A stretch of 32,000 bases of DNA, from contig NZ_CP195536.1 of NCBI RefSeq assembly GCF_051307035.1, positions 2,790,001 through 2,822,000 of the forward strand, given 5' to 3'. This DNA comes from Psychrobacter sp. DM4. Its GTDB lineage: Bacteria > Pseudomonadota > Gammaproteobacteria > Pseudomonadales > Moraxellaceae. Positions 1 to 11,701 of this stretch are shown here, one piece after another (the first letter of the stretch is position 1; every line of letters begins with the position of its first letter). Below the pieces are notes generated by a model. It ran no database searches. It saw only the letters and a list, made by a program, of their open reading frames with translations, and was not told where the DNA came from. The position numbers were made by a program, and so were the translations under genes.

Positions 1-121
1 TGACTTGGTTGCAGCTTGGTATGGCTTATTTTCATCAAGTAAATATTCAGTTAAAGATACTCAAGACATTAACTATCCATCCATGCGATGAAGAGATGTC
101 AAAAATAATATTTAATGACAA

Positions 122-144
122 AGAGTATTGGTTGCCAATACTCT
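122..144 (-). terminator. Hairpin downstream of the giant ORF, a possible intrinsic terminator
   Basis: AGAGTATTGG-TTG-CCAATACTCT has perfect 10-bp arms and lies about 30 nt after the stop at 177-179. On the minus strand it is followed by TTTGTCATT, only a moderate T-run. Confidence 0.35.
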
Positions 145-176
145 AAAATTAGCTCTAAAAACTAAAATATGTGATT

Positions 177-3100
177 TCATTCACCTGAATATTCATATAC
201 TAACCTTTGTAAAGATTGCATTACGTATTCTATTTTTAAAAAGCGACCAAATGCAAAATTTTGTAGTACTCTATATAAGAACTTTCGATGGTTATTGTCG
301 CTGCATACAATCATAAATCTTAAAACGAGCTTCGCAAGCCTATCTTCTGCAACTAAACCATCAATACTTTTTATAGCTTTTGTCATACATGCTGATATTG
401 CCTGCTCTATTATAATACGATGTACCTTATTACCCTGCACACCATACATATTATTTACGATTGAAGCTTCTAGGTAAATCTTACCAATTAAGCTGTTATG
501 AACTATCCTTTTATTGAATCCTATAAGTACTATGTTTTTCATTAAGCTTGCCAATAATGATACCGCTATTTCAGAGTCGGGAAAGTTTATAGTCGTATCG
601 TTCAAAAGGTTCGTAAGTATAATTAAATCATCTATTTCCTTAGATAGCTCAATAAGGTCAGTTAAGTAATACTGGAAATAAAGTCCGTAGAAAGCCATGT
701 ATTTTAAAGCGTTTTTTCTATCATCAAACGTTAAATATTTTTCATCAGTAAATTTCATCACTAAATGATGAAGGCTGATCAGATTACATTCAGTGCCAGT
801 TTTTATAAATCCGCCGATAACGGAATCTAGGCATAGCCAAGGTATTTCGTGAGATAGTGCAATTTTTATGCTACTGAAAACAGAATCACTGACCAATCCT
901 AAGTTTTTGACCTCAGAAACGATAGTTGGTAAATCAAACTCCTTAGGTTTTTCTATAATAGAGTTATCTAGCAGTGTTTGCAGGGCACAAATTAGTTCGC
1001 CATGAAAATAGTGAGTGCTATTAGAATTGATTGTGCTAACTTGACCTTCGTATTCATTAATTCTTAGAAAACTATCGTTAGTTACATTACTTATCCAAAG
1101 CCTAATTGCTCTGTCTGTTTCTTCACTGACGTAAATTGATGTTCCTAAAAGGAGCATGGATTTATACAAGTTAGTCACACATAAATATAGTATGCCGTAA
1201 ATATCAACTGTTAGAGCATTGAACTCTGTTATATCGCTATACGACTTAGTTAAACACTTGTTGGCGTTTTTATTTAGCAACAGGCTATGTACTATTTCTA
1301 CTTCTTCCTTAACCATACTACTTTGTATAGCTTTCATACCTTTTACATAGAGAGGTAAGTCAGACTTACGCAAGAACTCTTCAATACTCTCTTCAATAGG
1401 GTTATCTTGCTTAATTTTTTGTAGATAAGCACTCAAATCTTCAAGAGGGCTAACCTCACTTAATTTAATTTTTTCAAATAACGGTTTAGGGTAATTGTGC
1501 TGTGATTCATCAACAATTTTCATAGCAAGATCGTATATAGTGGCACTAACAGTCTCACGTTCTAAAAGTTTAACCGTTTCTAAACGGTACTGAGCTTCGC
1601 CACCTATATCTAAATTATTCAACTTTTTCCCAAGCTCACTTTCGATGCTAATTAAATCTTTATGTATGGCTAAATTACTATCGACTAATAGCTTTAAATA
1701 TTGTTTGCCATCTATCTCATAGGTAACGCCTCCATAGACGTTTTCAAAAACTTTGTCCTCTTCAAAGTTATTATTAACGCGACTGCTAAAAGAGTTTAGA
1801 TAGAAATTGGTTATTATAGGGGCGCTTTTGTACGGGTTATCTATGAATAGTTTGACTATAACAGCTTCTATAAAGTCAAAATCTATAAAGAAACCAACTT
1901 GGAATAGAAAAAACTCAAACTCATGTTTATCTAACGAGAATAAAGGAGTAGGAATACGAGATAGTTGCTGTTTTGCTAGCTTTGGATCTTCTCCACCTTC
2001 CATACAGCTTAATAAATATTCGTGCCAAACATACAAACTCTTTTCTTTGTCAATAAACTTATTATAGGTTGTTTGCGCTAGCCCGTACTTACTGGATTTC
2101 AAGTAATATCTGGCTTGAAATAAATATAAGTCATGATTCCATTCGTTATCCTGAATCTTAGACAACTCTTTAGATAAGGTATCAAGCTTATCTAAGCGTA
2201 ATAAGGAATGTAAATAATATAAATTAAGCTCGCTATTAACGCTTAAATCTTGGCATAAAAAGTTTAATATCTTATAAACAGTAACCTCAAATGACTTTCC
2301 TAAATTAAATAGATTATCGCACCATGTCTTTACCATGTATGGGTTTAACTCTTTAAGGGATTCGCCACTTTCCTCAATAAGATCATTAAGGTATACTCTG
2401 TATTCATTTTTCTTTATTTCGCTTTCAAAGCTAATAAAGGACAAAAGGATGCTCTTTATAACATTAGAGTCAAAATCATCATAAACAATTATTTCATTAC
2501 AATTTTCCAGCCATGCTTTCAACAAATCTAAGTCTATATTTTTGTGTAGAATCGCTCTTACTAAAGAGTTCATTTCGTCTTCAACTAAACCCTCATTCGA
2601 TTTTAATTTAAAAACAATTGACTCAGGAATGAAAAAAGGTTCTTCGTCTTTTATCTTTTTTAAGGCATCTCCCATTTTTTCATCAAGCTTACTTATATCG
2701 CCTTGAAACTTTAGACTTGCAATTTTAATCCCATTCAAACTAGTAGTAGCCATAGCTATTTTAGTAAGTGAAATTAAAATATTAACAGCTAAAAGCTCCA
2801 ATTCTAGCTCTTGCTTCATCGATATAATGCTTAAAAATCTATCAGAAACACTCTCTATTTTTCGGCTTGTATCGCGATTAATATAAGAGAAAGGTTCTTT
2901 TTGAGAGAAAATAATGCTGTTTATCTCAGTTGCTATACTCCAATACTGTATATTTACGGTTTGGTTTGAATTTGATATCTGTTTTAAGACAATGTTAGCC
3001 TTTAGATGCTCATTTGTTCTAATGAGGCCTTGAGCAAGATAAAAGAGAAGATAGTCGTCTAGTGTATATAATTCATTATCTAGCCTCGTCAAAAGCTCGT

Positions 3101-3572
3101 GTTTAGCTGAAAAATATTGATCATAAGCTGCCAATAAATAATATTTAGCATTACTACTAAATCTAGTATAAGCTCTCAAACCATTGTCAATGTTGTCTTT
3201 AACTATGGTTTTAATCAGTAAGTATTGGTATATTTCAAGATAAGGAGAAGGTTTATTAGACAATGCTAACCTTAATCTATCTGTGGGCATTAGACTATTA
3301 TTCTCAAGAGAGTCTATATAAATCAATAAAATATCAAATAGTGTTCCTACTTCCTCAATTGGCTTGTGCAAACTTTGATAAGGTAGAAGTTTATTTTTAG
3401 CATCCTCAAATTTTCCTGTAATACATGTAAGCATTACATCATGCACTATTTGATTTATATCAATAGGATCTAGCGAACCTTTGACGATGTTATATTGGTT
3501 TTCAATGTTGTTAATAATCTTGTCTCTGCCAACATTGTCACCACCTCCCAAATGCTCTTGATTAACTGCCAT
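177..3572 (-). CDS. Giant alpha-helical-repeat protein with a GreA/B C-terminal-like central segment and a putative C-terminal PIN-like nuclease domain. The TPR-GreAB-C-PIN type architecture is tentative.
   Basis: ORF of 1131 aa from ATG 3572 (TTG 3575 lies one codon upstream; aa numbering below follows the 1132-aa track protein). No Walker A motif. aa 488-541 are TPR-like (ARYYLKSSKYGLAQTTYNKF...). aa 608-672 (VFENVYGGVTYEIDGKQYLKLLVDSNLAIHKDLISIESELGKKLNNLDIGGE) resemble the GreA C-terminal signature (E. coli GreA ...[20 protein letters not shown]...). aa 786-960 have PIN-like spaced acidic residues: TVD791IYG, VSE818E, CLD917S, TFD951D. Confidence 0.5.
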   Translation of the reverse strand: MAVNQEHLGGGDNVGRDKIINNIENQYNIVKGSLDPIDINQIVHDVMLTCITGKFEDAKNKLLPYQSLHKPIEEVGTLFDILLIYIDSLENNSLMPTDRLRLALSNKPSPYLEIYQYLLIKTIVKDNIDNGLRAYTRFSSNAKYYLLAAYDQYFSAKHELLTRLDNELYTLDDYLLFYLAQGLIRTNEHLKANIVLKQISNSNQTVNIQYWSIATEINSIIFSQKEPFSYINRDTSRKIESVSDRFLSIISMKQELELELLAVNILISLTKIAMATTSLNGIKIASLKFQGDISKLDEKMGDALKKIKDEEPFFIPESIVFKLKSNEGLVEDEMNSLVRAILHKNIDLDLLKAWLENCNEIIVYDDFDSNVIKSILLSFISFESEIKKNEYRVYLNDLIEESGESLKELNPYMVKTWCDNLFNLGKSFEVTVYKILNFLCQDLSVNSELNLYYLHSLLRLDKLDTLSKELSKIQDNEWNHDLYLFQARYYLKSSKYGLAQTTYNKFIDKEKSLYVWHEYLLSCMEGGEDPKLAKQQLSRIPTPLFSLDKHEFEFFLFQVGFFIDFDFIEAVIVKLFIDNPYKSAPIITNFYLNSFSSRVNNNFEEDKVFENVYGGVTYEIDGKQYLKLLVDSNLAIHKDLISIESELGKKLNNLDIGGEAQYRLETVKLLERETVSATIYDLAMKIVDESQHNYPKPLFEKIKLSEVSPLEDLSAYLQKIKQDNPIEESIEEFLRKSDLPLYVKGMKAIQSSMVKEEVEIVHSLLLNKNANKCLTKSYSDITEFNALTVDIYGILYLCVTNLYKSMLLLGTSIYVSEETDRAIRLWISNVTNDSFLRINEYEGQVSTINSNSTHYFHGELICALQTLLDNSIIEKPKEFDLPTIVSEVKNLGLVSDSVFSSIKIALSHEIPWLCLDSVIGGFIKTGTECNLISLHHLVMKFTDEKYLTFDDRKNALKYMAFYGLYFQYYLTDLIELSKEIDDLIILTNLLNDTTINFPDSEIAVSLLASLMKNIVLIGFNKRIVHNSLIGKIYLEASIVNNMYGVQGNKVHRIIIEQAISACMTKAIKSIDGLVAEDRLAKLVLRFMIVCSDNNHRKFLYRVLQNFAFGRFLKIEYVMQSLQRLVYEYSGE

Positions 3573-3644
3573 CAATCTTGTCTCACAAAAATTACTATGT
3601 TAATAATTAATCACCTTGTCACCTCCAACGTTATCTCCACTTCC
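3507..3644 (-). repeat. Two copies of a 42-nt coding repeat for the peptide G-[SG]-G-D-N-V-G-x-D-K-[VI]-I-N, flanking the ORF junction
   Basis: 3603-3644 encodes GSGDNVGGDKVINY, the C-terminus of the 108-aa ORF. 3507-3548 encodes GGGDNVGRDKIINN, aa 10-23 of the giant ORF. By eye, roughly three quarters of the nucleotides are identical, and many differences fall at third codon positions. Confidence 0.8.
3600..3602 (-). other. Single in-frame TAA stop separating the 108-aa ORF from the giant ORF
   Basis: The two ORF starts (3926 and 3575) are congruent modulo 3. Minus-strand reading gives ...AAT TAT TAA CAT AGT AAT TTT TGT GAG ACA AGA TTG ATG GCA..., with no other stop between the ORFs. Confidence 0.9.
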
Positions 3645-3926
3645 TTTATGTTTTTGTTTTATATTTTTCACTGTTTGCTCCTGATGAACATTGACTATTA
3701 AGCTTTGGACTGTAGGATTCTGTTGTAGTTTTCTGCATATTGCTGCCTCACTTAAGTCCTCTAGCATACTGATTTCGTTTATTTGCTTTGCTAAAATCTC
3801 AATGTCAGAGTCATTAATGAACCATCTTTTCAATTTATCCTTCAAGGTTAGAGTGGAAACTTGAATACCATTTTTGACTAAATCATATACCATGCCTGAT
3901 AAAACTGTCTCGGTTAAATATTCCAT
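3600..3926 (-). CDS. 108-aa protein: a predicted helical N-terminal module followed by the GDNVGGDKVIN motif. It is possibly the detached N-terminus of the giant ORF.
   Basis: ATG at 3926 is preceded by AAAGGTGA (reverse complement of 3931-3938). The ORF is in frame with 177-3575 and shares the C-terminal motif with the N-terminus of the giant ORF. Confidence 0.6.
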   Translation of the reverse strand: MEYLTETVLSGMVYDLVKNGIQVSTLTLKDKLKRWFINDSDIEILAKQINEISMLEDLSEAAICRKLQQNPTVQSLIVNVHQEQTVKNIKQKHKGSGDNVGGDKVINY

Positions 3927-3938
3927 TTTTTCACCTTT

Positions 3939-4278
3939 TTATATTAGTTTAAGCAAAAACTCTACGCGACTGGCATCATCGCCTTTACCCATGTAACCAT
4001 AAGCCTTGTCTATAACCTTATCAAGCGCATTATGATCTTTGGTTAGCTCAGGGTAAGGATCAATCATATAAATATTGTAAAGCTTAGCGCGTTGGGGCAT
4101 CTTTACTGCCATCTTGGTGGTGCTTACGAGCGTCTAAGATAGCTTGAGCATCTGATCCGATAACATCTTTGACTTTTACTGTTTTAACATCTCTATCCTT
4201 GGCATCAAAGGAATATGGAAAATTGTTATATATAAATCATACACACCAATATAATCTGTACCCTAGCAAAATAAGAAC
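3939..4278 (-). pseudogene. Decayed C-terminal remnant of an MmeI/PglX-type (Type IIL/BREX-like) DNA methyltransferase
   Basis: Minus-strand translation gives ...GYRLYWCV*FIYNNFPYSFDA...AQAILDARKHHQDGS..., then a frameshift near 4100, then ...LYNIYMIDPYPELTKDHNALDKVIDKAYGYMGKGDDASRVEFLLKLI*. From memory, this matches the conserved MmeI-family tail (YNxFPWP ... ILDAR ... LYDP..MP.EL.KAH..LD.AV...YG ... R..FLFELY). It has an in-frame TGA at 4237-4239 and no N-terminal part. Confidence 0.6.
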
Positions 4279-5391
4279 TTACTTAGATACAAACTTAAAG
4301 CTACCACCACCTTTCCACCCTACGGACTTGGTAATCCCATCGAAATCAAGGTTCTCTACAATTGAATTAAGCCTTTTAACCACAAGACTTGCAACTTGAT
4401 CGCCTATTTCAATACCTATATATCTTCTGTTCATTTTATGAGCTACTGCAACAGTAGTGCCTGAACCTAGAAAACAATCTAAAATCAAATCGCCCTCTAC
4501 AGTTGAGATATCAAAAATCTTTTTTATTAGCTCCTCAGGCTTTGGTGTGTCAAAAACAAGATCATCTGAAAATAACTTTAAAATATGTTTTTTTGCTGAC
4601 TTACTCGTACCACACTCATCAGCTCGCCAGATTGTCTCATGCGAGGCGCTTATTGATGACAAGTCTAAGAATTTTTTTATTCTAGGTACACCAGAGCCAT
4701 CTCTACCGAACCACACGTTTCCTTTTTTTATTTCAGCTTTCATTTTCTCTTCATTATGAGCCCAACACCTACCTTTTGGTGGGTAATGCTCTTTTCCAGA
4801 AGGTGCTACAATCGTATAAAACTGACTAGCCACAGCATGTCCTGCCTGTACATTAGCTGAAACTGATTGCCATCTACCTCTAGGGTCATTATCAGGGTTT
4901 TTATACCTATCAATCATATCTTCTGTTGCTTTAGCCCTATTAGCGGATAAGGTAAACTTTTTAATATCAATACAATAAACCAATATGTACTCATGATTAT
5001 TAGAAAATAATTTGCGATTTTCTCTAGTGGTTCTATGTTGCCATATTACTGTTGTTAAATAATTCTTTGCGCCAAAAACACTATCCGCTAACAAACGCGC
5101 ATGGTGAACATTACCATCATCAATTGATATCCAAATACTACCGTCTTCTGTTATAAGAGGTTTAAGAAGCGCTAACGTCTTTTCAAGGCTTGACGACCAA
5201 GTTTTATGCTCTTTATTGTCGTTATAATGGTCATATACCTCACCGTTGTTATAAGGTGGATCTATGTAAACACACTTTACTCGACCCTCATAATCCTTAC
5301 TAATTCTTTTAAGGACTTCAATGTTGTCTCCTTGAAAGATATAATTACCTTGGGAGTCATGGTGATCTATATTTTCTAATTTATTCGACAT
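4279..5391 (-). CDS. Beta-class N6-adenine/N4-cytosine DNA methyltransferase (N6_N4_Mtase, Type III Mod-like short form)
   Basis: Motif IV DPPY (aa 44-47, nt 5251-5262) precedes motif I FLGSGTT near the C-terminus, which is the beta permutation. GTSKSAKKHILKLF resembles Mod-type motifs. Confidence 0.85.
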   Translation of the reverse strand: MSNKLENIDHHDSQGNYIFQGDNIEVLKRISKDYEGRVKCVYIDPPYNNGEVYDHYNDNKEHKTWSSSLEKTLALLKPLITEDGSIWISIDDGNVHHARLLADSVFGAKNYLTTVIWQHRTTRENRKLFSNNHEYILVYCIDIKKFTLSANRAKATEDMIDRYKNPDNDPRGRWQSVSANVQAGHAVASQFYTIVAPSGKEHYPPKGRCWAHNEEKMKAEIKKGNVWFGRDGSGVPRIKKFLDLSSISASHETIWRADECGTSKSAKKHILKLFSDDLVFDTPKPEELIKKIFDISTVEGDLILDCFLGSGTTVAVAHKMNRRYIGIEIGDQVASLVVKRLNSIVENLDFDGITKSVGWKGGGSFKFVSK

Positions 5392-5635
5392 TCATAATAT
5401 CTCAAGAGAAAGTTATGTCATACATTCTATACTAGAAATGACATGACATTTAATTAGAAGGCTTTAATATTAGGCGCTTACCGATTAAAACGTCATCTAT
5501 TGACGCATAGTTAAATTTGGCATAATTAGCTAAAAAGGTGGTAGCATTCAAAGCCATCATCGAAGTAACATTCAGTTTTAGTAATTAGGAAGCTCTTTTC
5601 AAGCATCAATATTCCATTTAAAAGGTTAAATTATT

Positions 5636-6958
5636 TTGTCTCTCTCCACCAAAAATGCTAAAAAAATAACCGCGCCTAACTATCTAGGTAGCAAACTAAG
5701 AATGATGGATGACATCCTACCTATTTTAACAGATGAGACTAATGAGGGTGAGTGGGTATGCGATCTCTTCTCAGGTTCAGGGATTGTTACAGCAGCGCTA
5801 TCAAACTATCGCTCAGTCATATCAGTGGATATCCAAAACTACTCTAATGAATTTATTAACGGTTTTTCTAGCCCTTTAATAACATTGAACGCCGAGGCTT
5901 TTTTGAACGATATTGGTCAAGAATTTAAAAGGCTATGCCTTTTGGTTCCGGATCTACTGCAATATGAGGATAGACTGTTGAATGACAGTGAGACTATATT
6001 TGAGTTGGCAAATTTTATAGAAAATGCCTCGTTTATTAGATACTCGCATAAAGATTTTTCTTCAAAATCTGAAAACCTCGATCAGATCATGCTTGACGCA
6101 ATCAGTATTTTAGGTGATAACGGAGTGAAGGCGGAGGATATTATTGCTACATGGAATTTTGGCGGTGTTTACTTCTCTTTTAAGCAATCTCTATTCATCG
6201 ATAGTATATTGAATACCATTAAGAGACAAAATTTAGAAAACATTAAATCTACTGTACTGGCATTAGCTTGCACCTTAGTTAATACAATAGGTAAACAGTT
6301 TGCTCAGCCTTTGAGTCCTTGGGACAAAAACGGTAACCCTAAGAAAAGCTTGTTTAAAAAGGCCAATTCAGACCGAGGGTTGAGCGCGAAAGATGTGTAT
6401 ATAAGTATTATGGAGGACTACTTAAATCAAACTCCAAGCCAATATAATGTACAAAGTTGGTGTATGGATTTCAAAGACGCGCTTAATTCATTACCGAGTC
6501 AGGTAACAATGGTTTACGCTGATCCTCCATACACTAGAGATCACTATAGCCGTTTTTATCATGTGCTAGAGACATTATCTTTAGGCGATATACCTGAAGT
6601 AAGTACTGTTAAAGTGAGAGATAAAATTAGTATAAGCAAAGGGCTCTATCGAAAAGATAGGCATCAATCAGCATTTTGCATTAAATCCCAAGCTTTTGAT
6701 GCATTTGATGACTTATTTCGCATAGCTTCTGAAAAACAAATAAAAGTACTCCTTTCGTACTCTCCTTTTGAGAATGAAGAGCACCCTAGAGTCATGAAAG
6801 TTGAAGAAATTATAAAAATCGCTAGTAAATATTTCGATAATTTTGAAGAAACTATAGTTACAAAGCTTAAGCACAACAAGCTAAATAGTAACTCCAATCA
6901 CTTAAATAGAGGCCTTCCAGCAGAGCTACTTCTTTTATTCACAAACCCTAAAGGTTAA
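5636..6958 (+). CDS. Alpha-class D12 (Dam-like) N6-adenine DNA methyltransferase with a large insert
   Basis: N-terminal NYLGSK, DLFSGSG (motif I) and ADPPY (nt 6521-6532, motif IV) occur in the alpha order. A TTG start at 5636 is required to keep the YxGSK motif. Length is 440 aa, versus about 280 aa for Dam. Confidence 0.8.
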   Translation: MSLSTKNAKKITAPNYLGSKLRMMDDILPILTDETNEGEWVCDLFSGSGIVTAALSNYRSVISVDIQNYSNEFINGFSSPLITLNAEAFLNDIGQEFKRLCLLVPDLLQYEDRLLNDSETIFELANFIENASFIRYSHKDFSSKSENLDQIMLDAISILGDNGVKAEDIIATWNFGGVYFSFKQSLFIDSILNTIKRQNLENIKSTVLALACTLVNTIGKQFAQPLSPWDKNGNPKKSLFKKANSDRGLSAKDVYISIMEDYLNQTPSQYNVQSWCMDFKDALNSLPSQVTMVYADPPYTRDHYSRFYHVLETLSLGDIPEVSTVKVRDKISISKGLYRKDRHQSAFCIKSQAFDAFDDLFRIASEKQIKVLLSYSPFENEEHPRVMKVEEIIKIASKYFDNFEETIVTKLKHNKLNSNSNHLNRGLPAELLLLFTNPKG

Positions 6959-8168
6959 ACAGCGTTGATGATAGGCTGCCAAAACGCATCGAGGTTTCAT
7001 CTTCAAAATATTCAAAAAGTGTAGTGGGTTCAATTAAATCACGGTGCTCATGAAAAGGGAATGTTAAGCGACATTTTCTTTGAGTGCTCCCACCTTTCTT
7101 GATCCAATTATCATCGACCCAAGCTTTTAAGGTCTGATAATAATCATGTTCAGGCATGAACAGTGAATAAATAAATGTTCTTTTTCCAACATTTATAAAT
7201 ATTGCTATTGGGTCACCGTTCTCTGGGTAGGCTAAACCAGCGGCGGCTGATAGTTCTATGCGGTAATTTTGACTGCTGACAGCTACGCATGGACGATACT
7301 CAATACTTTCAAGATTAGTGGTTACAGGATTAACGTGCCTTAAAATTACTTGTCTTGCACTAGTCTCCAAGCTCGCTTCAAAGTAATTAAGATAGGTATC
7401 TTTATTAAAATTAGCTTGTTTCCATCTATTACCAGATTTTGGTATTTCGGCAATTAATACTTCAGAATCTGCGTTAAAAAACCATCCATCAAAACCTTCA
7501 TTTTTAGTAAAATTTCTTTTTTGCGGATGATTATAAGGCCCTTCTGCACCATCTTTGTTTCTTGAACGAGCTCTTTTACGTAATTCTGCGCCTATACTAA
7601 ACCTTCTAAACATTCTGTCGTTTATTCTTGCCCTTAAGGCAACTGTCTCATCGTGTAACGGCTTTAAATTATGATGCGCGACCTCTAACCAGTTGTTCCA
7701 AGTATAAATAGTCTCTATTAGATTAGTAGAAGAAAGGCTTACTGCTGTGTAAGCTTCTTGGTTTTTCCTAATAGCACTCATAGTAAGGTTGTTGGAGCCT
7801 AGTATCAACCATCCTTGAGAGTGGTCTTCGTTGGCTAAAATACAAAATTTGGGATGAAAAATTCCACCGCCAGTAGTTTGAATATAAGCTTTTATATTGA
7901 ATAATTTATGATCGACAGCTTTCAAATGTTCTATGCATCTAGTATTTGTTATCGAATCAACACCTATGATTAAATTTATATTTTTAACCTTTTTTTGCTG
8001 AGCTATTTCATTAAACATTAAGTCAAAGCCGCCAGATGTAACGAATGCATAAGCACCATAAATTGAAGTAATGTCGCTCAAGTCGATACATCCTCTTAAT
8101 ACTTCATCTAGTGTGAGAACATCCTTAAAGTTCTTATCTTGAATATTTAATAATTTCAACATACTCAT
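6948..8168 (-). CDS. PLD-superfamily (single HKD-type motif) nuclease, a candidate restriction endonuclease of BfiI/NgoFVII-like design
   Basis: FH116PK118FCILANEDHSQGWLILGS136N137NLT (nt 7782-7856) fits HxK...GSxN. The C-terminal ~200 aa could be a DNA-binding domain. The preferred start is ATG 8168, preceded by AAGGA; the track start at 8201 is an alternative. The gene overlaps the D12 methyltransferase convergently by 11 bp. Confidence 0.7.
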   Translation of the reverse strand: MSMLKLLNIQDKNFKDVLTLDEVLRGCIDLSDITSIYGAYAFVTSGGFDLMFNEIAQQKKVKNINLIIGVDSITNTRCIEHLKAVDHKLFNIKAYIQTTGGGIFHPKFCILANEDHSQGWLILGSNNLTMSAIRKNQEAYTAVSLSSTNLIETIYTWNNWLEVAHHNLKPLHDETVALRARINDRMFRRFSIGAELRKRARSRNKDGAEGPYNHPQKRNFTKNEGFDGWFFNADSEVLIAEIPKSGNRWKQANFNKDTYLNYFEASLETSARQVILRHVNPVTTNLESIEYRPCVAVSSQNYRIELSAAAGLAYPENGDPIAIFINVGKRTFIYSLFMPEHDYYQTLKAWVDDNWIKKGGSTQRKCRLTFPFHEHRDLIEPTTLFEYFEDETSMRFGSLSSTLFNL

Positions 8169-8289
8169 TAACCATCCTTTTTGTTCTAAAAATATATCCA
8201 CATATTTAGAAAATTATTATCTCCATTGTGTCAATCTGATCTTTCAATAGATGTCACTACCATTAGAGTATTAGCATTGACAAAACTCC

Positions 8290-8481
8290 CTACCGCAACG
8301 CTTCACATGCAATCCCATCCTTGTCACGGTCTAAGCGCGTATATCCTGCTTTTTTTGCATTAAAATAAGCCTGAGCTTCCGCTTGGCTACCAAAGTCAGC
8401 ACATACCACTCCTCCTGCATTGGCAGGGACAGCAGTAAGTAATATGATAGACGAGACGGCACAAACAATAATATTTTTCAT
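8290..8481 (-). CDS. Secreted Excalibur calcium-binding-domain protein
   Basis: Signal peptide MKNIIVCAVSSIILLTAVPANA, followed by the Excalibur-type DRDKDGIACE motif. Confidence 0.75.
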   Translation of the reverse strand: MKNIIVCAVSSIILLTAVPANAGGVVCADFGSQAEAQAYFNAKKAGYTRLDRDKDGIACEALR

Positions 8482-8582
8482 AACTTAGTCCTTTAAGATT
8501 AACGGGTTTTTAAATTGTACCCTTACTGTCAAACCAGATCACAGCGTATACTCTAAACAACTACCTAATAATGGCTTTTACT

Positions 8583-8987
8583 TTAGACACCATTATCAAG
8601 CCTATCTTGATACTCATCACACACCCTCAAACCCGCTTTAATGACCTCACTAAGATCAGCGCCCTCTTTAACACTGTAGGGCACGTTTGGGCTCATATTG
8701 GCTTGATTTAGAGCATCCACAGCTGACTTATTGAGCGGTGTGCCGATATACGACTCATCGGTAAAACCTTTAGGTTCAAAGTACACTTCACGCCCAAACT
8801 TTGGATGAGAACCACATGAGATCTCACCATAGGGGACAGTGAACGGATAAGGTGTTGCGTACTCAGTGGCCCACAATACCTCGTTCACAACAATGTAACC
8901 TGCACCGTAGTATTCATCGTATTCTGGTTCGACAGGCGTACAGGCTGTTATCAACAATAAGGTAAGGCCTACTATTAATTTACTCAT
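8583..8987 (-). CDS. Lipoprotein, DUF2511/YebY-like (tentative)
   Basis: Lipobox LITAC. YPFTVPYGEISCGSHPKFGREVYFEP...YIGTPLNKSA resembles the WPFT..G.L.C....V.F...Y.LN..A pattern. Its ATG overlaps the stop of the upstream 562-aa ORF. Confidence 0.55.
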   Translation of the reverse strand: MSKLIVGLTLLLITACTPVEPEYDEYYGAGYIVVNEVLWATEYATPYPFTVPYGEISCGSHPKFGREVYFEPKGFTDESYIGTPLNKSAVDALNQANMSPNVPYSVKEGADLSEVIKAGLRVCDEYQDRLDNGV

Positions 8988-10668
8988 CTGAAATCTCCTT
9001 TTTCAGATTATCTATAGCCGTTTTAACCCAATTAACATCCTCACCGTTAGTGTGTTTAAAGTATTGGATGATGCCAAATTTAGATATTGCGCTTACATCA
9101 GACAGACGACCATTACCTCTAAATAACTGACTTATAACTTGTCTTACAACTCCTTCTGTAAAACCATCTTGATCTGTTACTTTTATAACAAGACCGCTAG
9201 TTTGACTGCCTTTTTTCTTGCAATCAAATAGATAAAAAAGTCCAAGATTAGTAATCAGGCGCATGACGAATATCACCTCTACACTAAGATCACGTTGTCT
9301 ACTGCGCATACCACGCACCGTCTCGCCTATAAATATATTTTCACCAGCAAGGTTTACGCAGTCTATGACTACGGGAGCATAACCCAAAGTGACCTTAAGG
9401 TCTTGAGCATAGCGTAAAAGACGTTCAAAGTTATTCTGTAGGGAGGTGGCTGCATCACTATCCAATACTGTTTGTATCCTGCCAATGTCGCCATTAGAAT
9501 TACCGCCCTCCCCATCTGCAAAAGCGTCAGGCTCGTTTTGAGGCAACCGTATGACCGTATTGCATCTACCTACAACCTCGTCCAAGGTTAAATTCTCGCC
9601 CTTTATAATCGCCCGTATAGTGCCTATCTGTTCTACTCTGTGTCTGATTACAGCAGTAATTATATTATTAGCGTCCCTTTCGACCTCTAGTAAGACCTCA
9701 TCAGACTCAACGGTGTTGTAGAGGGGTTTAATTCTTGATGTATGAGGGGTGGTACCATCGCTGTATGTGGCAGAATTAAGTTTGTCTATCCTATATTCTA
9801 TTGCATCTCCCTGCGGCATAGAGATACCTAAAATTTCGGTACAAAGCACGGTCTGCTCATCAATTCTCAAACCTGCTACTTTTAGTTGGATTTCTTGCTT
9901 GTGATAAGGTTCGGCTCTTAAGGGAAGATAAGTTATGTTATTCCTAAGCATTTTCCTATTGAGCTCCCAAACCACTTTTTTGGTATGGGAGTCTGTTTTT
10001 AGGTGGTATAGGAATACAGCATCGGCAATTACGCATCGATCAGGAATAGTGATTAGATCACCACAATCATCATTTATATTTAACCTCTTTTCGACTTCCT
10101 GCTTATGCCAACTAATAAGGACTGTATTGATCTCTTTTGATACCCCATAGTGTGCAACAAAAAATAAAACCGCTGGGATGATTATTCTAGTGGTATCAGT
10201 CTGTACAACGAGATTGCTATTGGAGTCTGTCTTGATTTTATTAACTGGATAACTAGCAGGCTCAAGAATATACTCACCCTTATTCTTTGAGATACTAAAG
10301 TGGTTAGTATAGGTAAGGTTTGGGCGCTCGTATTTCTTATCGTCATACGCATCTAATGTGGTATATAAAGTCTCAAATTCGTACTTTTCTTCGCACTTCC
10401 CGTTGACCCAAATCGATCCTATGGGTAACTTTAGTATTGATTTGATTGATACTTCAACTACAACCTGATCTTTAGTATCAGAGTCTAAAAAATGTACTTG
10501 AACGACCCTACGTCTATTACGATAGCGTATTGGCCCATACCACAGTACGACATATTCAGTCTTTGGCTTATAACTATCCCTCAAACATGCCTTAAAGTAT
10601 TTTCGGATATCCACCATACCCATGCACTTAACTTTTTTGCCGTTATTTTCAAATAATGCATCAAACAT
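8980..10668 (-). CDS. Orphan 562-aa protein, the first gene inside the transposon end. Function unknown.
   Basis: Long ORF with a GGGGGTGAG Shine-Dalgarno-like sequence just upstream of the ATG at 10668, 137 nt from the element terminus. I found no recognisable catalytic motif. Confidence 0.65.
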   Translation of the reverse strand: MFDALFENNGKKVKCMGMVDIRKYFKACLRDSYKPKTEYVVLWYGPIRYRNRRRVVQVHFLDSDTKDQVVVEVSIKSILKLPIGSIWVNGKCEEKYEFETLYTTLDAYDDKKYERPNLTYTNHFSISKNKGEYILEPASYPVNKIKTDSNSNLVVQTDTTRIIIPAVLFFVAHYGVSKEINTVLISWHKQEVEKRLNINDDCGDLITIPDRCVIADAVFLYHLKTDSHTKKVVWELNRKMLRNNITYLPLRAEPYHKQEIQLKVAGLRIDEQTVLCTEILGISMPQGDAIEYRIDKLNSATYSDGTTPHTSRIKPLYNTVESDEVLLEVERDANNIITAVIRHRVEQIGTIRAIIKGENLTLDEVVGRCNTVIRLPQNEPDAFADGEGGNSNGDIGRIQTVLDSDAATSLQNNFERLLRYAQDLKVTLGYAPVVIDCVNLAGENIFIGETVRGMRSRQRDLSVEVIFVMRLITNLGLFYLFDCKKKGSQTSGLVIKVTDQDGFTEGVVRQVISQLFRGNGRLSDVSAISKFGIIQYFKHTNGEDVNWVKTAIDNLKKEISDE

Positions 10669-10753
10669 AACTCACCCCCAGCAGGCTTAATCTAGGTAGC
10701 GAGTTAGCTATTTTTTTGAGAGGTATTTTGAGCGAACAAAGAGAGGTAAAGAT

Positions 10754-10804
10754 GTGTTTTTGACATCTATTCTTGGAATTTGACATTAATTGTTGGAATT
10801 GACA
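10754..10804 (-). repeat. Transposon terminal region with three direct transposase-binding-type repeats
   Basis: Reverse complement reads TGTCAATTCCAAcaattaaTGTCAAATTCCAAgaatagaTGTCAAAAACAC. The sites are 10793-10804, 10773-10785 and 10754-10765. The terminal 5'-TGT/ACA-3' is as in Tn7/Tn5053/Mu-type DDE elements. Confidence 0.6.
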
Positions 10805-11701
10805 GCCGCCACCAACCAAAGCTACTGCTGATATTGTGTGATGAACTTGTCTGAAGGGACGCGTGCCATAATCATATTCACTATCTGCAACCGAATAGGT
10901 GCTAGCAACCTCTAGCGCATCCTCAGCGCTAAGATCAGGCAGGATAGTCGGTAGACGTGATGCCATCAAGGTCTTGCCTGATCCTGGCGGTCCTGTAAAC
11001 AATAATGAATGCCCACCAGCAGCAGCAATCTCAAGTGCACGGCGCGCATGATGCTGACCCTTTACATCGGCCAGATCAACCTTGTAGCCTGTGTGTTTGG
11101 GCGCAGGCGTCGGCGTGACTATCGCAAGCTGTTTGTCCGTCATGGATGGATCTGTTAGCGCTTGCAAGTGATCGCAAACCGCTTTTAGACTATCTGCACT
11201 AAGTACCTCTATACCCTCAACTCGGCTGGCTTCAGCGCCATTATCACTAGGTACGATCAGCTGACGCGTCTGCGCTAGGGGATCCTTTATATTGGATTGC
11301 TCTGCCTTTATCGCTCGGGCGACAGCGAGGCTCCCTGTCACTTGACGCAGCTCACCGTTTAGTGCCAGCTCTCCAATAAACTCAAAACGAGTCAGTACTT
11401 CTGGCTCAAGCTGACCACTTGCGGCCAAAATACCAATGGCAATAGGTAGATCTAAACGCGCGCCGTCTTTGGGTAGATCCGCTGGCGCAAGATTGATGGT
11501 CAAGCGTCTATTGGGAAACTGAAATCCTGAATTTAATATAGCCGAGCGCACTCGATCTTTGCTTTCTCGTACCGCTGCAGCAGGCAGACCAACGATAGTC
11601 AGAGCAGGTAGACCTTGAGAGAGATGTACTTCGATAATAACTTGCGGAGCGTGTAGACCTACCACGGAGCGGGTATAGACTTGCGCGAACGACATGGACA
11701 T
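10805..11701 (-). pseudogene. comM: comM/yifB (Mg-chelatase-like competence protein), 5' fragment truncated after about codon 299
   Basis: The N-terminal Lon-like domain and Walker A GPPGSGKT are present. Homology ends at ...FRQVHHTISAVALVGGG (compare E. coli YifB FRAPHHSASLTAMVGGG). The remaining 47 codons of the track ORF are read from the transposon end. Confidence 0.85.

Follow-up and report, generated by a model that had tools for sequence, protein, structure and literature searches.

The 32,000-nt stretch of DNA from Psychrobacter sp. DM4 analyzed here (the window, to whose positions all coordinates refer) carries on its minus strand two consecutive open reading frames (ORFs), a small one of the bab/gapS6a type and a large one of the agp/gapS6b type (Table 1). 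We consider it very probable that this locus is an intact two-gene abortive-infection system directed against phages, which belongs to the Bab/Agp (GAPS6) family and represents a divergent, Psychrobacter-type variant of it. Since the pair is an effector/sensor system encoded by two genes, the stop codon that separates the two ORFs, together with the spacer following it, is a normal cistron boundary of an operon, and the peptide found in duplicate on either side of this boundary would be the signalling interface.

The layout of the junction had been described in an earlier note on this DNA, and the description holds: the two ORFs are in the same reading frame, and a single TAA and eight sense codons, followed by a TTG and an ATG codon, lie between them. 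The ORF of 1132 amino acids given in that note results when the TTG at 3575 is taken as the start codon, as in the ORF listing; when translation begins at the ATG at 3572, the large protein comprises 1131 residues and its N-terminal sequence is MAVNQEHLGGGDNVGRDKIIN (also written as MAVNQEHLGGGDNVGRDKIINN). The small protein of 108 residues ends in QKHKGSGDNVGGDKVINY immediately before the TAA codon, its last residues as read from the ORF being ...KGSGDNVGGDKVINY. The note was also right in calling the Shine-Dalgarno sequence in front of the ATG at 3572 weak, the sole element of this type being a GAGA(C)A box, which we read as the weak Shine-Dalgarno sequence of the sensor gene. A GAGA[CT]A box is found 6-8 nt upstream of the sensor ATG in all nine loci of the Psychrobacter-type clade, and a conserved weak site of this kind would fit a cellular level of the sensor below that of the effector. 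A search for terminators over positions 1..4500 found no terminator-like site between the small and the large gene; the only such site in this region is a hairpin located 33 nt past the agp stop codon, at which transcription of bab-agp probably stops and which the convergent gene may use as well.

A characterized relative of the pair is the system that Ibarlosa et al. described in E. coli ECOR25, in which the Bab protein (109 amino acids) is encoded next to Agp (1094 amino acids), a protein with TPR, GreA/B-C and PIN domains; this system provides E. coli with resistance to phage T5 through abortive infection, and the crystal structure of Bab(1-90) has been reported (PDB accession code 9H9V) (bioRxiv 10.1101/2024.11.07.622273). 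BASS11 peptides make amyloid fibrils, and T5 infection triggers the Agp-dependent assembly of BASS11 and the movement of Bab to the cell periphery. Resistance to T5 is abolished by the beta-breaker substitutions Bab N100P and Agp N12P, and likewise by Bab G11K and by Agp S628L, L634P and D762N. Furthermore, HET-S combined with the R0 motif of NWD2 can stand in for Bab and BASS11 (bioRxiv 10.1101/2024.11.07.622273).

The small protein of the DM4 locus matches the Pfam family HetE-N (PF20701; E 8.3e-29) over residues 1-103, so that the profile takes in the motif; it scores 116.9 bits against the NCBIfam model GapS6a (NF047935; cutoff 90), and it aligns through residues 1-84 with the crystallized 'Babybass' protein (PDB 9H9V; E 2e-14). 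An identical protein is named 'GapS6a family protein [Psychrobacter sp. DM4]' by NCBI. Judged by these matches, the small protein is a Bab/GapS6a homologue that consists of a Babybell/Bell-type helical domain and a C-terminal BASS11 tail, and by homology to Bab it would function as a cell-death effector. The first helix of Bab is its predicted pore-lining helix. Mutation of Bab residues D2, G11, Y14 and D15 abolishes activity in a fungal assay (bioRxiv 10.1101/2024.11.07.622273), and the alignment retains these residues as E2, G11, Y14 and D15 in the small protein. In the tail, Bab Q92, D99 and N100, which are needed for foci formation or defence (bioRxiv 10.1101/2024.11.07.622273), correspond to Q91, D98 and N99. 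The Bab sequence used for this alignment (P0026) is a one-residue variant of the crystallized protein, and its numbering matches the published positions I87-G88-S89-V90, Q92, D99 and N100. Among the 120 small-protein homologues listed, nearly all possess the BASS11 motif, and all are between 106 and 150 amino acids long.

The large protein aligns end to end (residues 5-1117) with the NCBIfam model GapS6b (NF047936; profile positions 1-1088 of 1089, E 4e-142). Full-length BLASTP alignments connect it, at 21% identity in both cases, with an enterobacterial Agp-type protein (E 9e-40) and with the Vibrio GapS6b protein (E 9e-52). These alignments identify the large protein as a divergent full-length homologue of Agp/GapS6b. 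The function-critical residues of E. coli Agp, N12, S628, L634 and D762, are retained in the alignment as N13, S645, L651 and D790, and D790 is invariant in the clade alignment.

The domain organization of this putative sensor was assessed with AlphaFold2 (AF2), and the resulting models have to be read with their limits in mind. A search of the PDB with the full-length profile returned no solved Agp-like structure. The full-length AF2 model, computed from nine sequences, has a mean predicted local distance difference test (pLDDT) score of 62 and an unreliable central region; a crop of residues 596-945 (350 residues) improved the beta-rich domain, with half of the crop remaining under a pLDDT of 50. 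Residues 1-34 are modelled as disordered (pLDDT 25-28). Foldseek comparison of the all-helical solenoid with the PDB gave as best matches the TPR superhelices of SKI3/TTC37, IFT-A, Ctr9 and subunits of the APC/C (E 3e-5 to 1e-3), and this model-based comparison supports the presence of a TPR domain. Within the crop, the beta-rich domain (residues 608-675, pLDDT 62-89) displays a strand-strand-strand-helix-strand-strand order; hhalign alignment of the family profile with the C-terminal domain (CTD) of E. coli GreA, for which the query sequence is 100% identical to 1GRJ, places LISIESELGKKL in the expected register with P = 0.0018, at a probability of only 15%. Gre factors were neither found when the profile of this region was compared with PDB sequences nor ranked in a Foldseek search with the cropped model. 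For the alpha/beta domain of the crop, the top Foldseek matches were VapC PIN toxins (5ecw; probability 0.96, TM-target 0.56, E 0.04), and the Pfam family PF20698 (PIN-TPR-GreABC) matches five of the eight homologues found, with family representatives at 1e-12 to 1e-17. These results support a predicted PIN domain with a candidate catalytic aspartate in the sensor. An NLR-type receptor was considered and ruled out: a Walker A motif is absent on reading by eye, and the Pfam and NCBIfam scans of the large protein gave no match to an NTPase family (NACHT or NB-ARC).

The best ungapped match of 17 residues between the two proteins begins at residue 91 of the small and at residue 5 of the large protein and comprises 12 identities, in comparison with a maximum of 9/17 when the large protein was shuffled 100 times. 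The duplication of the peptide around the stop codon, which the earlier note had recognized, is therefore far above chance. By its conserved residues, the shared peptide matches the BASS11 amyloid-signalling motif. The two 39-nt motif cores are identical at 29 positions; the statement of the note that the DNA differences are largely synonymous is roughly right, with five codons differing synonymously and three non-synonymously. A recent tandem duplication of the motif DNA is ruled out by this limited identity and by a longest identical run, read by eye, of about 6 nt, and the synonymous divergence appears to reflect long-term selection on the peptide rather than a recent duplication. The two copies also change together: the L006 pair carries G-H-G-N-N in both proteins, and the DM4 pair G-x-G-D-N. 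Cognate motif pairs share 10.75/17 identities and non-cognate pairs 9.36/17 (permutation p = 0.005, 10 lineages), a test that is partly confounded by shared ancestry. This shows that both copies are inherited and diverge together, in agreement with the congruence of the Bab and Agp trees (bioRxiv 10.1101/2024.11.07.622273).

Several side observations concern the motif and the two genes that carry it. The motif occurs in tandem in some relatives; the sensor of L006 (L006:1104-1230), for instance, starts with QNHTGHGNNVGRDLISISQSINGGSGNNVGRDLISIS, which contains two copies, and the effectors P0017 and P0023 have C-terminal ends with three to four GGDK(V/I) units. Such tandem motifs recall the two-repeat prion domain of HET-s. 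Some sensors of the TPR-GreA/B-C-PIN (TGP) family lack BASS11 and possess an alternative conserved start of the type ..IGHNI.A..NA.V.IG.I.. (P0175, P0177, P0179, P0183, P0194, P0198, P0202, P0217, P0224, P0226, P0235, P0236, P0241 and P0279); this IGHNI-type N-terminal segment may constitute a second class of signalling motif. In comparison with L018 (small gene at L018:4388-4714), the synonymous divergence (dS) is 0.60 for the small and 0.18 for the large gene, and the differences in the small gene cluster in its 5' two-thirds. This pattern points to a recombination breakpoint within the effector gene, in which case its tail with the motif would move together with the sensor gene.

How general the two-gene layout is can be judged from 14 loci with 12 distinct junctions, in which the identity of the large proteins to that of DM4 ranges from 92% down to about 21%. 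These loci stem from independent assemblies and include Psychrobacter-like metagenome contigs, enterobacterial P2-like prophages, Vibrio and Acinetobacter. In all 14, the small gene ends at a stop codon that a short spacer separates from an ATG, and the motif is present on both sides; the alignment of orthologous loci, which the earlier note had proposed as a check, thus finds the stop codon retained throughout. The stop codon is TAA in all nine loci of the clade. The spacers measure 8, 11/14, 12, 25, 27, 28 or 30 nt, and the relative frame of the two genes is consequently not conserved. Among the representatives of 168 large-protein clusters, most of the full-length ones start with an HxGxGDN motif, located within the first ~40 residues, and the few longer ones possess other N-terminal domains (trypsin-like, SMEK, HNH-like), never Bab. 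A fused Bab-sensor homologue was found neither among the 120 small-protein matches listed nor among 150 large-protein representatives. The ratio of non-synonymous to synonymous substitution rates (dN/dS), calculated separately for the two parts against five relatives as the note had likewise suggested, lies between 0.09 and 0.17 for the small and between 0.16 and 0.28 for the large gene, values which indicate that both genes are under purifying selection.

Searching 185,579 representative genomes with the large-protein alignment produced 291 pattern matches, none of which was confirmed; tblastn searches with the large protein found nothing in a phage collection, and in a plasmid collection only four distant partial matches (21-27% identity). 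Neither protein was matched by PADLOC, whose 2023 models predate the Bab/Agp and GAPS6 papers, so that this result is uninformative.

The way in which the pair would operate can be outlined by homology to E. coli Bab/Agp, from which each of the following steps is taken. The large protein would sense the phage infection, possibly through its GreA/B-C-like domain as an RNA-polymerase-binding element, whereupon its N-terminal BASS11 segment would take up a cross-beta (amyloid) fold and template the C-terminal BASS11 segment of the small protein. Templating would free helix 1 from the sheath of the Babybell bundle, so that the membrane is targeted and damaged and the infected cell is killed. The separation into two cistrons would allow the effector to build up in a soluble and inactive form.

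A number of points weigh against this assignment. The large protein reaches only 475 bits against the GapS6b model, for which the curated cutoff is 850; the Acinetobacter homologue, at 772 bits, is also below it. This sub-cutoff score, on account of which NCBI labels the large protein as a 'hypothetical protein', is that of a divergent subfamily in which homology is still present. The identity to the characterized Agp/GapS6b proteins amounts to about 21%, and the match of the large protein to PF20698 (E 0.047) falls below the threshold. The profile match behind the GreA/B-C assignment is weak and the AF2 model is of low depth, and the assignment is suggestive and not proven. Finally, the ~70 nt of intergenic DNA that precede the small gene in L016, L018 and L001 are deleted in the window, and this deletion could alter the expression of the pair.

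A rival possibility is that the pair is a genuine two-gene system whose shared Gly/Asp/Asn-rich peptide acts, in this divergent clade, as a simple non-amyloid docking or linker segment, or that the locus, intact in sequence, has fallen silent after the upstream deletion. We regard this as unlikely. Amyloid behaviour has been demonstrated for the E. coli motif only, and the divergence of the clade's sensor from Agp as well as the loss of the upstream ~70 nt would be compatible with such a change. However, both copies retain the defining residues of BASS11 (Q, the G-x-G-D-N core and the N targeted by beta-breakers), and both in their spacing and in their terminal placement, C-terminal in the effector and N-terminal in the sensor, they are exactly like the motifs of amyloid-signalling pairs. 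A silent locus is at odds with the purifying selection on both ORFs that is evident against close relatives, and the region upstream of the small gene still has a good ribosome-binding site (AAGGTGA) as well as a promoter-like site at 4024..3996 on the minus strand. The earlier note had considered an adaptor-plus-effector pair that docks through a shared motif. The two-protein pair coupled through this motif stands; the small protein, on the other hand, is the effector and not an adaptor, and the motif, judged from the homologous E. coli Bab/Agp pair, would serve amyloid templating rather than simple docking.

Less probable still is a programmed readthrough of the stop codon, or a coupled re-initiation, that would yield an additional Bab-Agp fusion isoform of ~143 kDa with a regulatory or seeding role. 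This idea, which the earlier note had also raised, draws on the weak Shine-Dalgarno sequence of the sensor gene and on the fact that the two ORFs are in frame, with one stop codon between them and no further in-frame stop in the spacer, a feature of the window and of seven of the nine clade loci. Yet these in-frame loci with a 27-nt spacer share it by descent and do not count as independent cases, whereas the two genes are intact and out of frame in L003 (28 nt) and L008 (25 nt), and the enterobacterial Agp-type pairs (8 nt) and the Acinetobacter pairs (11 or 14 nt) are out of frame as well. The stop codon of the clade, TAA, is the least leaky one; the junction RNA folds no more stably than shuffled sequence (z = -0.03) and has no special structure, and fused homologues did not turn up among the small-protein matches and large-protein representatives inspected. 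With the frames varying, the proposal finds no support, and it is to the same slight degree that we consider it conceivable that in the Psychrobacter-type clade, where behind a single stop codon the 27-30-nt spacer with its GAGA[CT]A box leaves the sensor in frame in most members, rare readthrough gives a fusion with two BASS11 copies in cis; if this were true, the Bab-Agp fusion could serve as a built-in nucleation seed or threshold-setter of the amyloid switch. That a single gene of ~1249 codons has been broken by a recent nonsense mutation, a sequencing or an assembly error, so that the locus would be a pseudogene or a toxic defence gene that has lost its activity, as the earlier note had suggested in two of its options, has the in-frame arrangement with one stop codon as its sole support and is refuted, to the point of being hardly credible, by the stop codon and two-gene layout in 14/14 loci from independent assemblies and metagenomes, by the uniform length of the small proteins, by the large-protein family beginning at the motif, by dN/dS values (0.09-0.28) far under 1 in both parts, and by the fact that the crystallized and functionally tested E. 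coli system also consists of two genes.

The intact two-gene system favoured here can be placed among several known ones. Like Bab/Agp of E. coli, it combines a small Babybell effector (108 versus 109 amino acids) with a sensor of about 1100 amino acids encoded directly downstream; the effector ends and the sensor starts with BASS11, the experimentally tested residues are retained, and the sensors align end to end. It differs from Bab/Agp in that the DM4 proteins are only ~21% (sensor) and ~40% (effector) identical to their counterparts, and in its 27-nt spacer with a GAGACA box, the spacer of the enterobacterial Agp-type locus examined being 8 nt long. Furthermore, the host is a member of the genus Psychrobacter (Moraxellaceae), the carrier is apparently a Tn7-like element at comM and not a P2-like prophage hotspot, and the DM4 pair is known from its sequence. 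The enterobacterial Bab/Agp-type pair (L009-L011, via P0050, which NCBI assigns to Citrobacter freundii) is situated in a P2-like prophage, with tail gene S on one side and baseplate gene V on the other; the insertion of a DDE transposase has truncated the sensor of L011 to 1028 amino acids.

Mahata et al. reported that the two-gene system GAPS6 of Vibrio, the second protein of which carries TPR and PIN domains, protects E. coli from phages (bioRxiv 10.1101/2023.03.28.534373). The DM4 pair resembles GAPS6 of the V. parahaemolyticus GMT islands in belonging to the same families and in being a two-gene anti-phage system that forms the cargo of a mobile element; it differs in the score of its large protein, which lies under the GapS6b cutoff, and in the type of mobile element. 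In profile scoring, the crystallized Bab fragment passes the GapS6a cutoff, and the two proteins of the Agp-type pair from the enterobacterial P2-like prophage score above the cutoffs of GapS6a and GapS6b, respectively. By these scores, Bab/Agp and GAPS6 are therefore one family, and neither of the two papers names the other system (bioRxiv 10.1101/2024.11.07.622273; 10.1101/2023.03.28.534373).

More distant parallels exist in the fungus Podospora anserina, where HET-S/NWD2 is likewise encoded by adjacent genes, one for a receptor that carries an amyloid motif at its N-terminus and the other for a membrane-targeting effector that ends in a copy of this motif, and is experimentally interchangeable with Bab/Agp. 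Unlike the DM4 pair, it is eukaryotic and employs a NACHT NLR receptor, a HeLo effector domain and another motif family. The Bell-domain/NLR pairs with BASS1-10 motifs from Actinobacteria and Cyanobacteria (Dyrka et al., bioRxiv 10.1101/2020.01.06.895854) share with the DM4 locus a Bell-type effector with a C-terminal motif and an adjacent receptor with an N-terminal one; in DM4, by contrast, the motif is BASS11, the host is a unicellular gammaproteobacterium, and the receptor is a TGP protein without a NACHT or NB-ARC match. TGP (TPR-GreA/B-C-PIN) proteins with fused N-terminal effectors are credited to Kaur et al. by Ibarlosa et al. (bioRxiv 10.1101/2024.11.07.622273). They are built on the same sensor chassis, and P0148, P0149, P0151, P0163 and P0166 align to the same profile. 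In these fusions a trypsin-like, SMEK or HNH-like domain is part of the same polypeptide, whereas the DM4 effector is a separate protein coupled to the sensor via the motif.

Table 1. Features of the bab-agp-like locus and of the neighbouring cargo genes in the window
Feature	Position	Strand	Remarks
Small ORF, bab-like / gapS6a	3926..3600	-	108 amino acids; stop codon TAA 3602-3600
Helix 1, N-terminal, hydrophobic	3867..3926	-	Codons 1-20, MEYLTETVLSGMVYDLVKNG; aligns with Bab MDFLTSTLLSGILYDGFKNG
BASS11 motif, effector copy	3603..3656	-	Q91-Y108, QKHKGSGDNVGGDKVINY; aligns with Bab Q92...K109 QNHSGSGDNIIGNKNIYK (P0026)
Intercistronic spacer	3573..3599	-	27 nt; GAGACA box at 3584-3579
Large ORF, agp-like / gapS6b-like	3572..177	-	1131 amino acids from ATG 3572
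BASS11 motif, sensor copy	3510..3560	-	Q5-N21, QEHLGGGDNVGRDKIIN; aligns with Agp-type N-terminus MMVNQEHNGSGDNVAGNK
TPR-like all-helical solenoid (predicted)	1779..3470	-	Residues ~35-598; AF2 pLDDT mostly 65-90
GreA/B C-terminal-like beta-rich domain (predicted)	1533..1751	-	Residues ~608-680; contains ISIESELGKKL
PIN-like nuclease domain (predicted)	783..1220	-	Residues ~785-930; putative acidic D790, E818, D916
Terminator-like hairpin	122..144	-	33 nt past the agp stop codon; sole such site in 1..4500
N6/N4 (type III-like) methyltransferase	4279-5391	-	
D12-class methyltransferase	5636-6958	+	
PLD-like protein	6948-8201	-	

With respect to the genomic setting, an ORF at 3942-4112 (minus strand) encodes a 57-amino-acid C-terminal remnant of an MmeI-family restriction-modification enzyme, which is 84% identical to the intact 932-amino-acid gene product in L001 and is preceded by frameshifted debris. 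At positions 3927-3941, next to this remnant, the ~70 nt that in L016, L018 and L001 lie between the remnant and the ribosome-binding site of the small gene are deleted; this deletion might affect the native promoter of the pair. The genes carried as cargo from comM to the defence pair (4279-8201) vary among relatives: the three of the window, for two methyltransferases and a PLD-like protein, which together resemble a module for restriction-modification or another kind of defence, are absent from L018 and replaced by an MmeI-like gene in L001. Adjoining the comM fragment are two overlapping minus-strand ORFs of 134 (8583-8987) and 562 amino acids (8980-10668), for which no Pfam or NCBIfam family match was found; a protein of 565-566 amino acids is encoded at the equivalent position in L001, L016 and L018, and no DNA similarity to the 562-amino-acid ORF was found.

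The ORF at 10661-11701 (minus strand; 346 amino acids) is the 5' part of comM/YifB, which encodes a Mg-chelatase-like ATPase (TIGR00368, positions 1-284 of 499). In L001, L003 and L018, a gene for a protein of 475-503 amino acids and then tniQ-tniB-tnsB(-tnsA) are found just past the sensor gene, and L001 and L018 start with a ChlI/Mg-chelatase (comM-like) gene. Based on the partial comM gene and the tni/tns genes beyond the sensor gene of these relatives, the left 10.6 kb of the window (1-10660) probably represent the cargo end of a Tn7-like element that has inserted into comM; the transposition genes of this element would lie past position 1.

There is little new in principle in these findings, as amyloid signalling in phage defence was already described in 2024. 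They imply, however, that the suspicious stop codon should be neither repaired nor flagged as the mark of a pseudogene, and that the 1131-amino-acid 'hypothetical protein' can be annotated as a sensor of the Agp/GapS6b type, the partner of the GapS6a protein, which already has its name. The database models unite Bab/Agp and GAPS6, which are linked in neither of the original papers, and the BASS11 system is extended to a divergent clade of the Moraxellaceae, in which it is apparently carried as Tn7-like cargo at comM. The naturally co-varying motif pairs of effectors and sensors in this family are possible material for studies on the specificity of amyloid templating.

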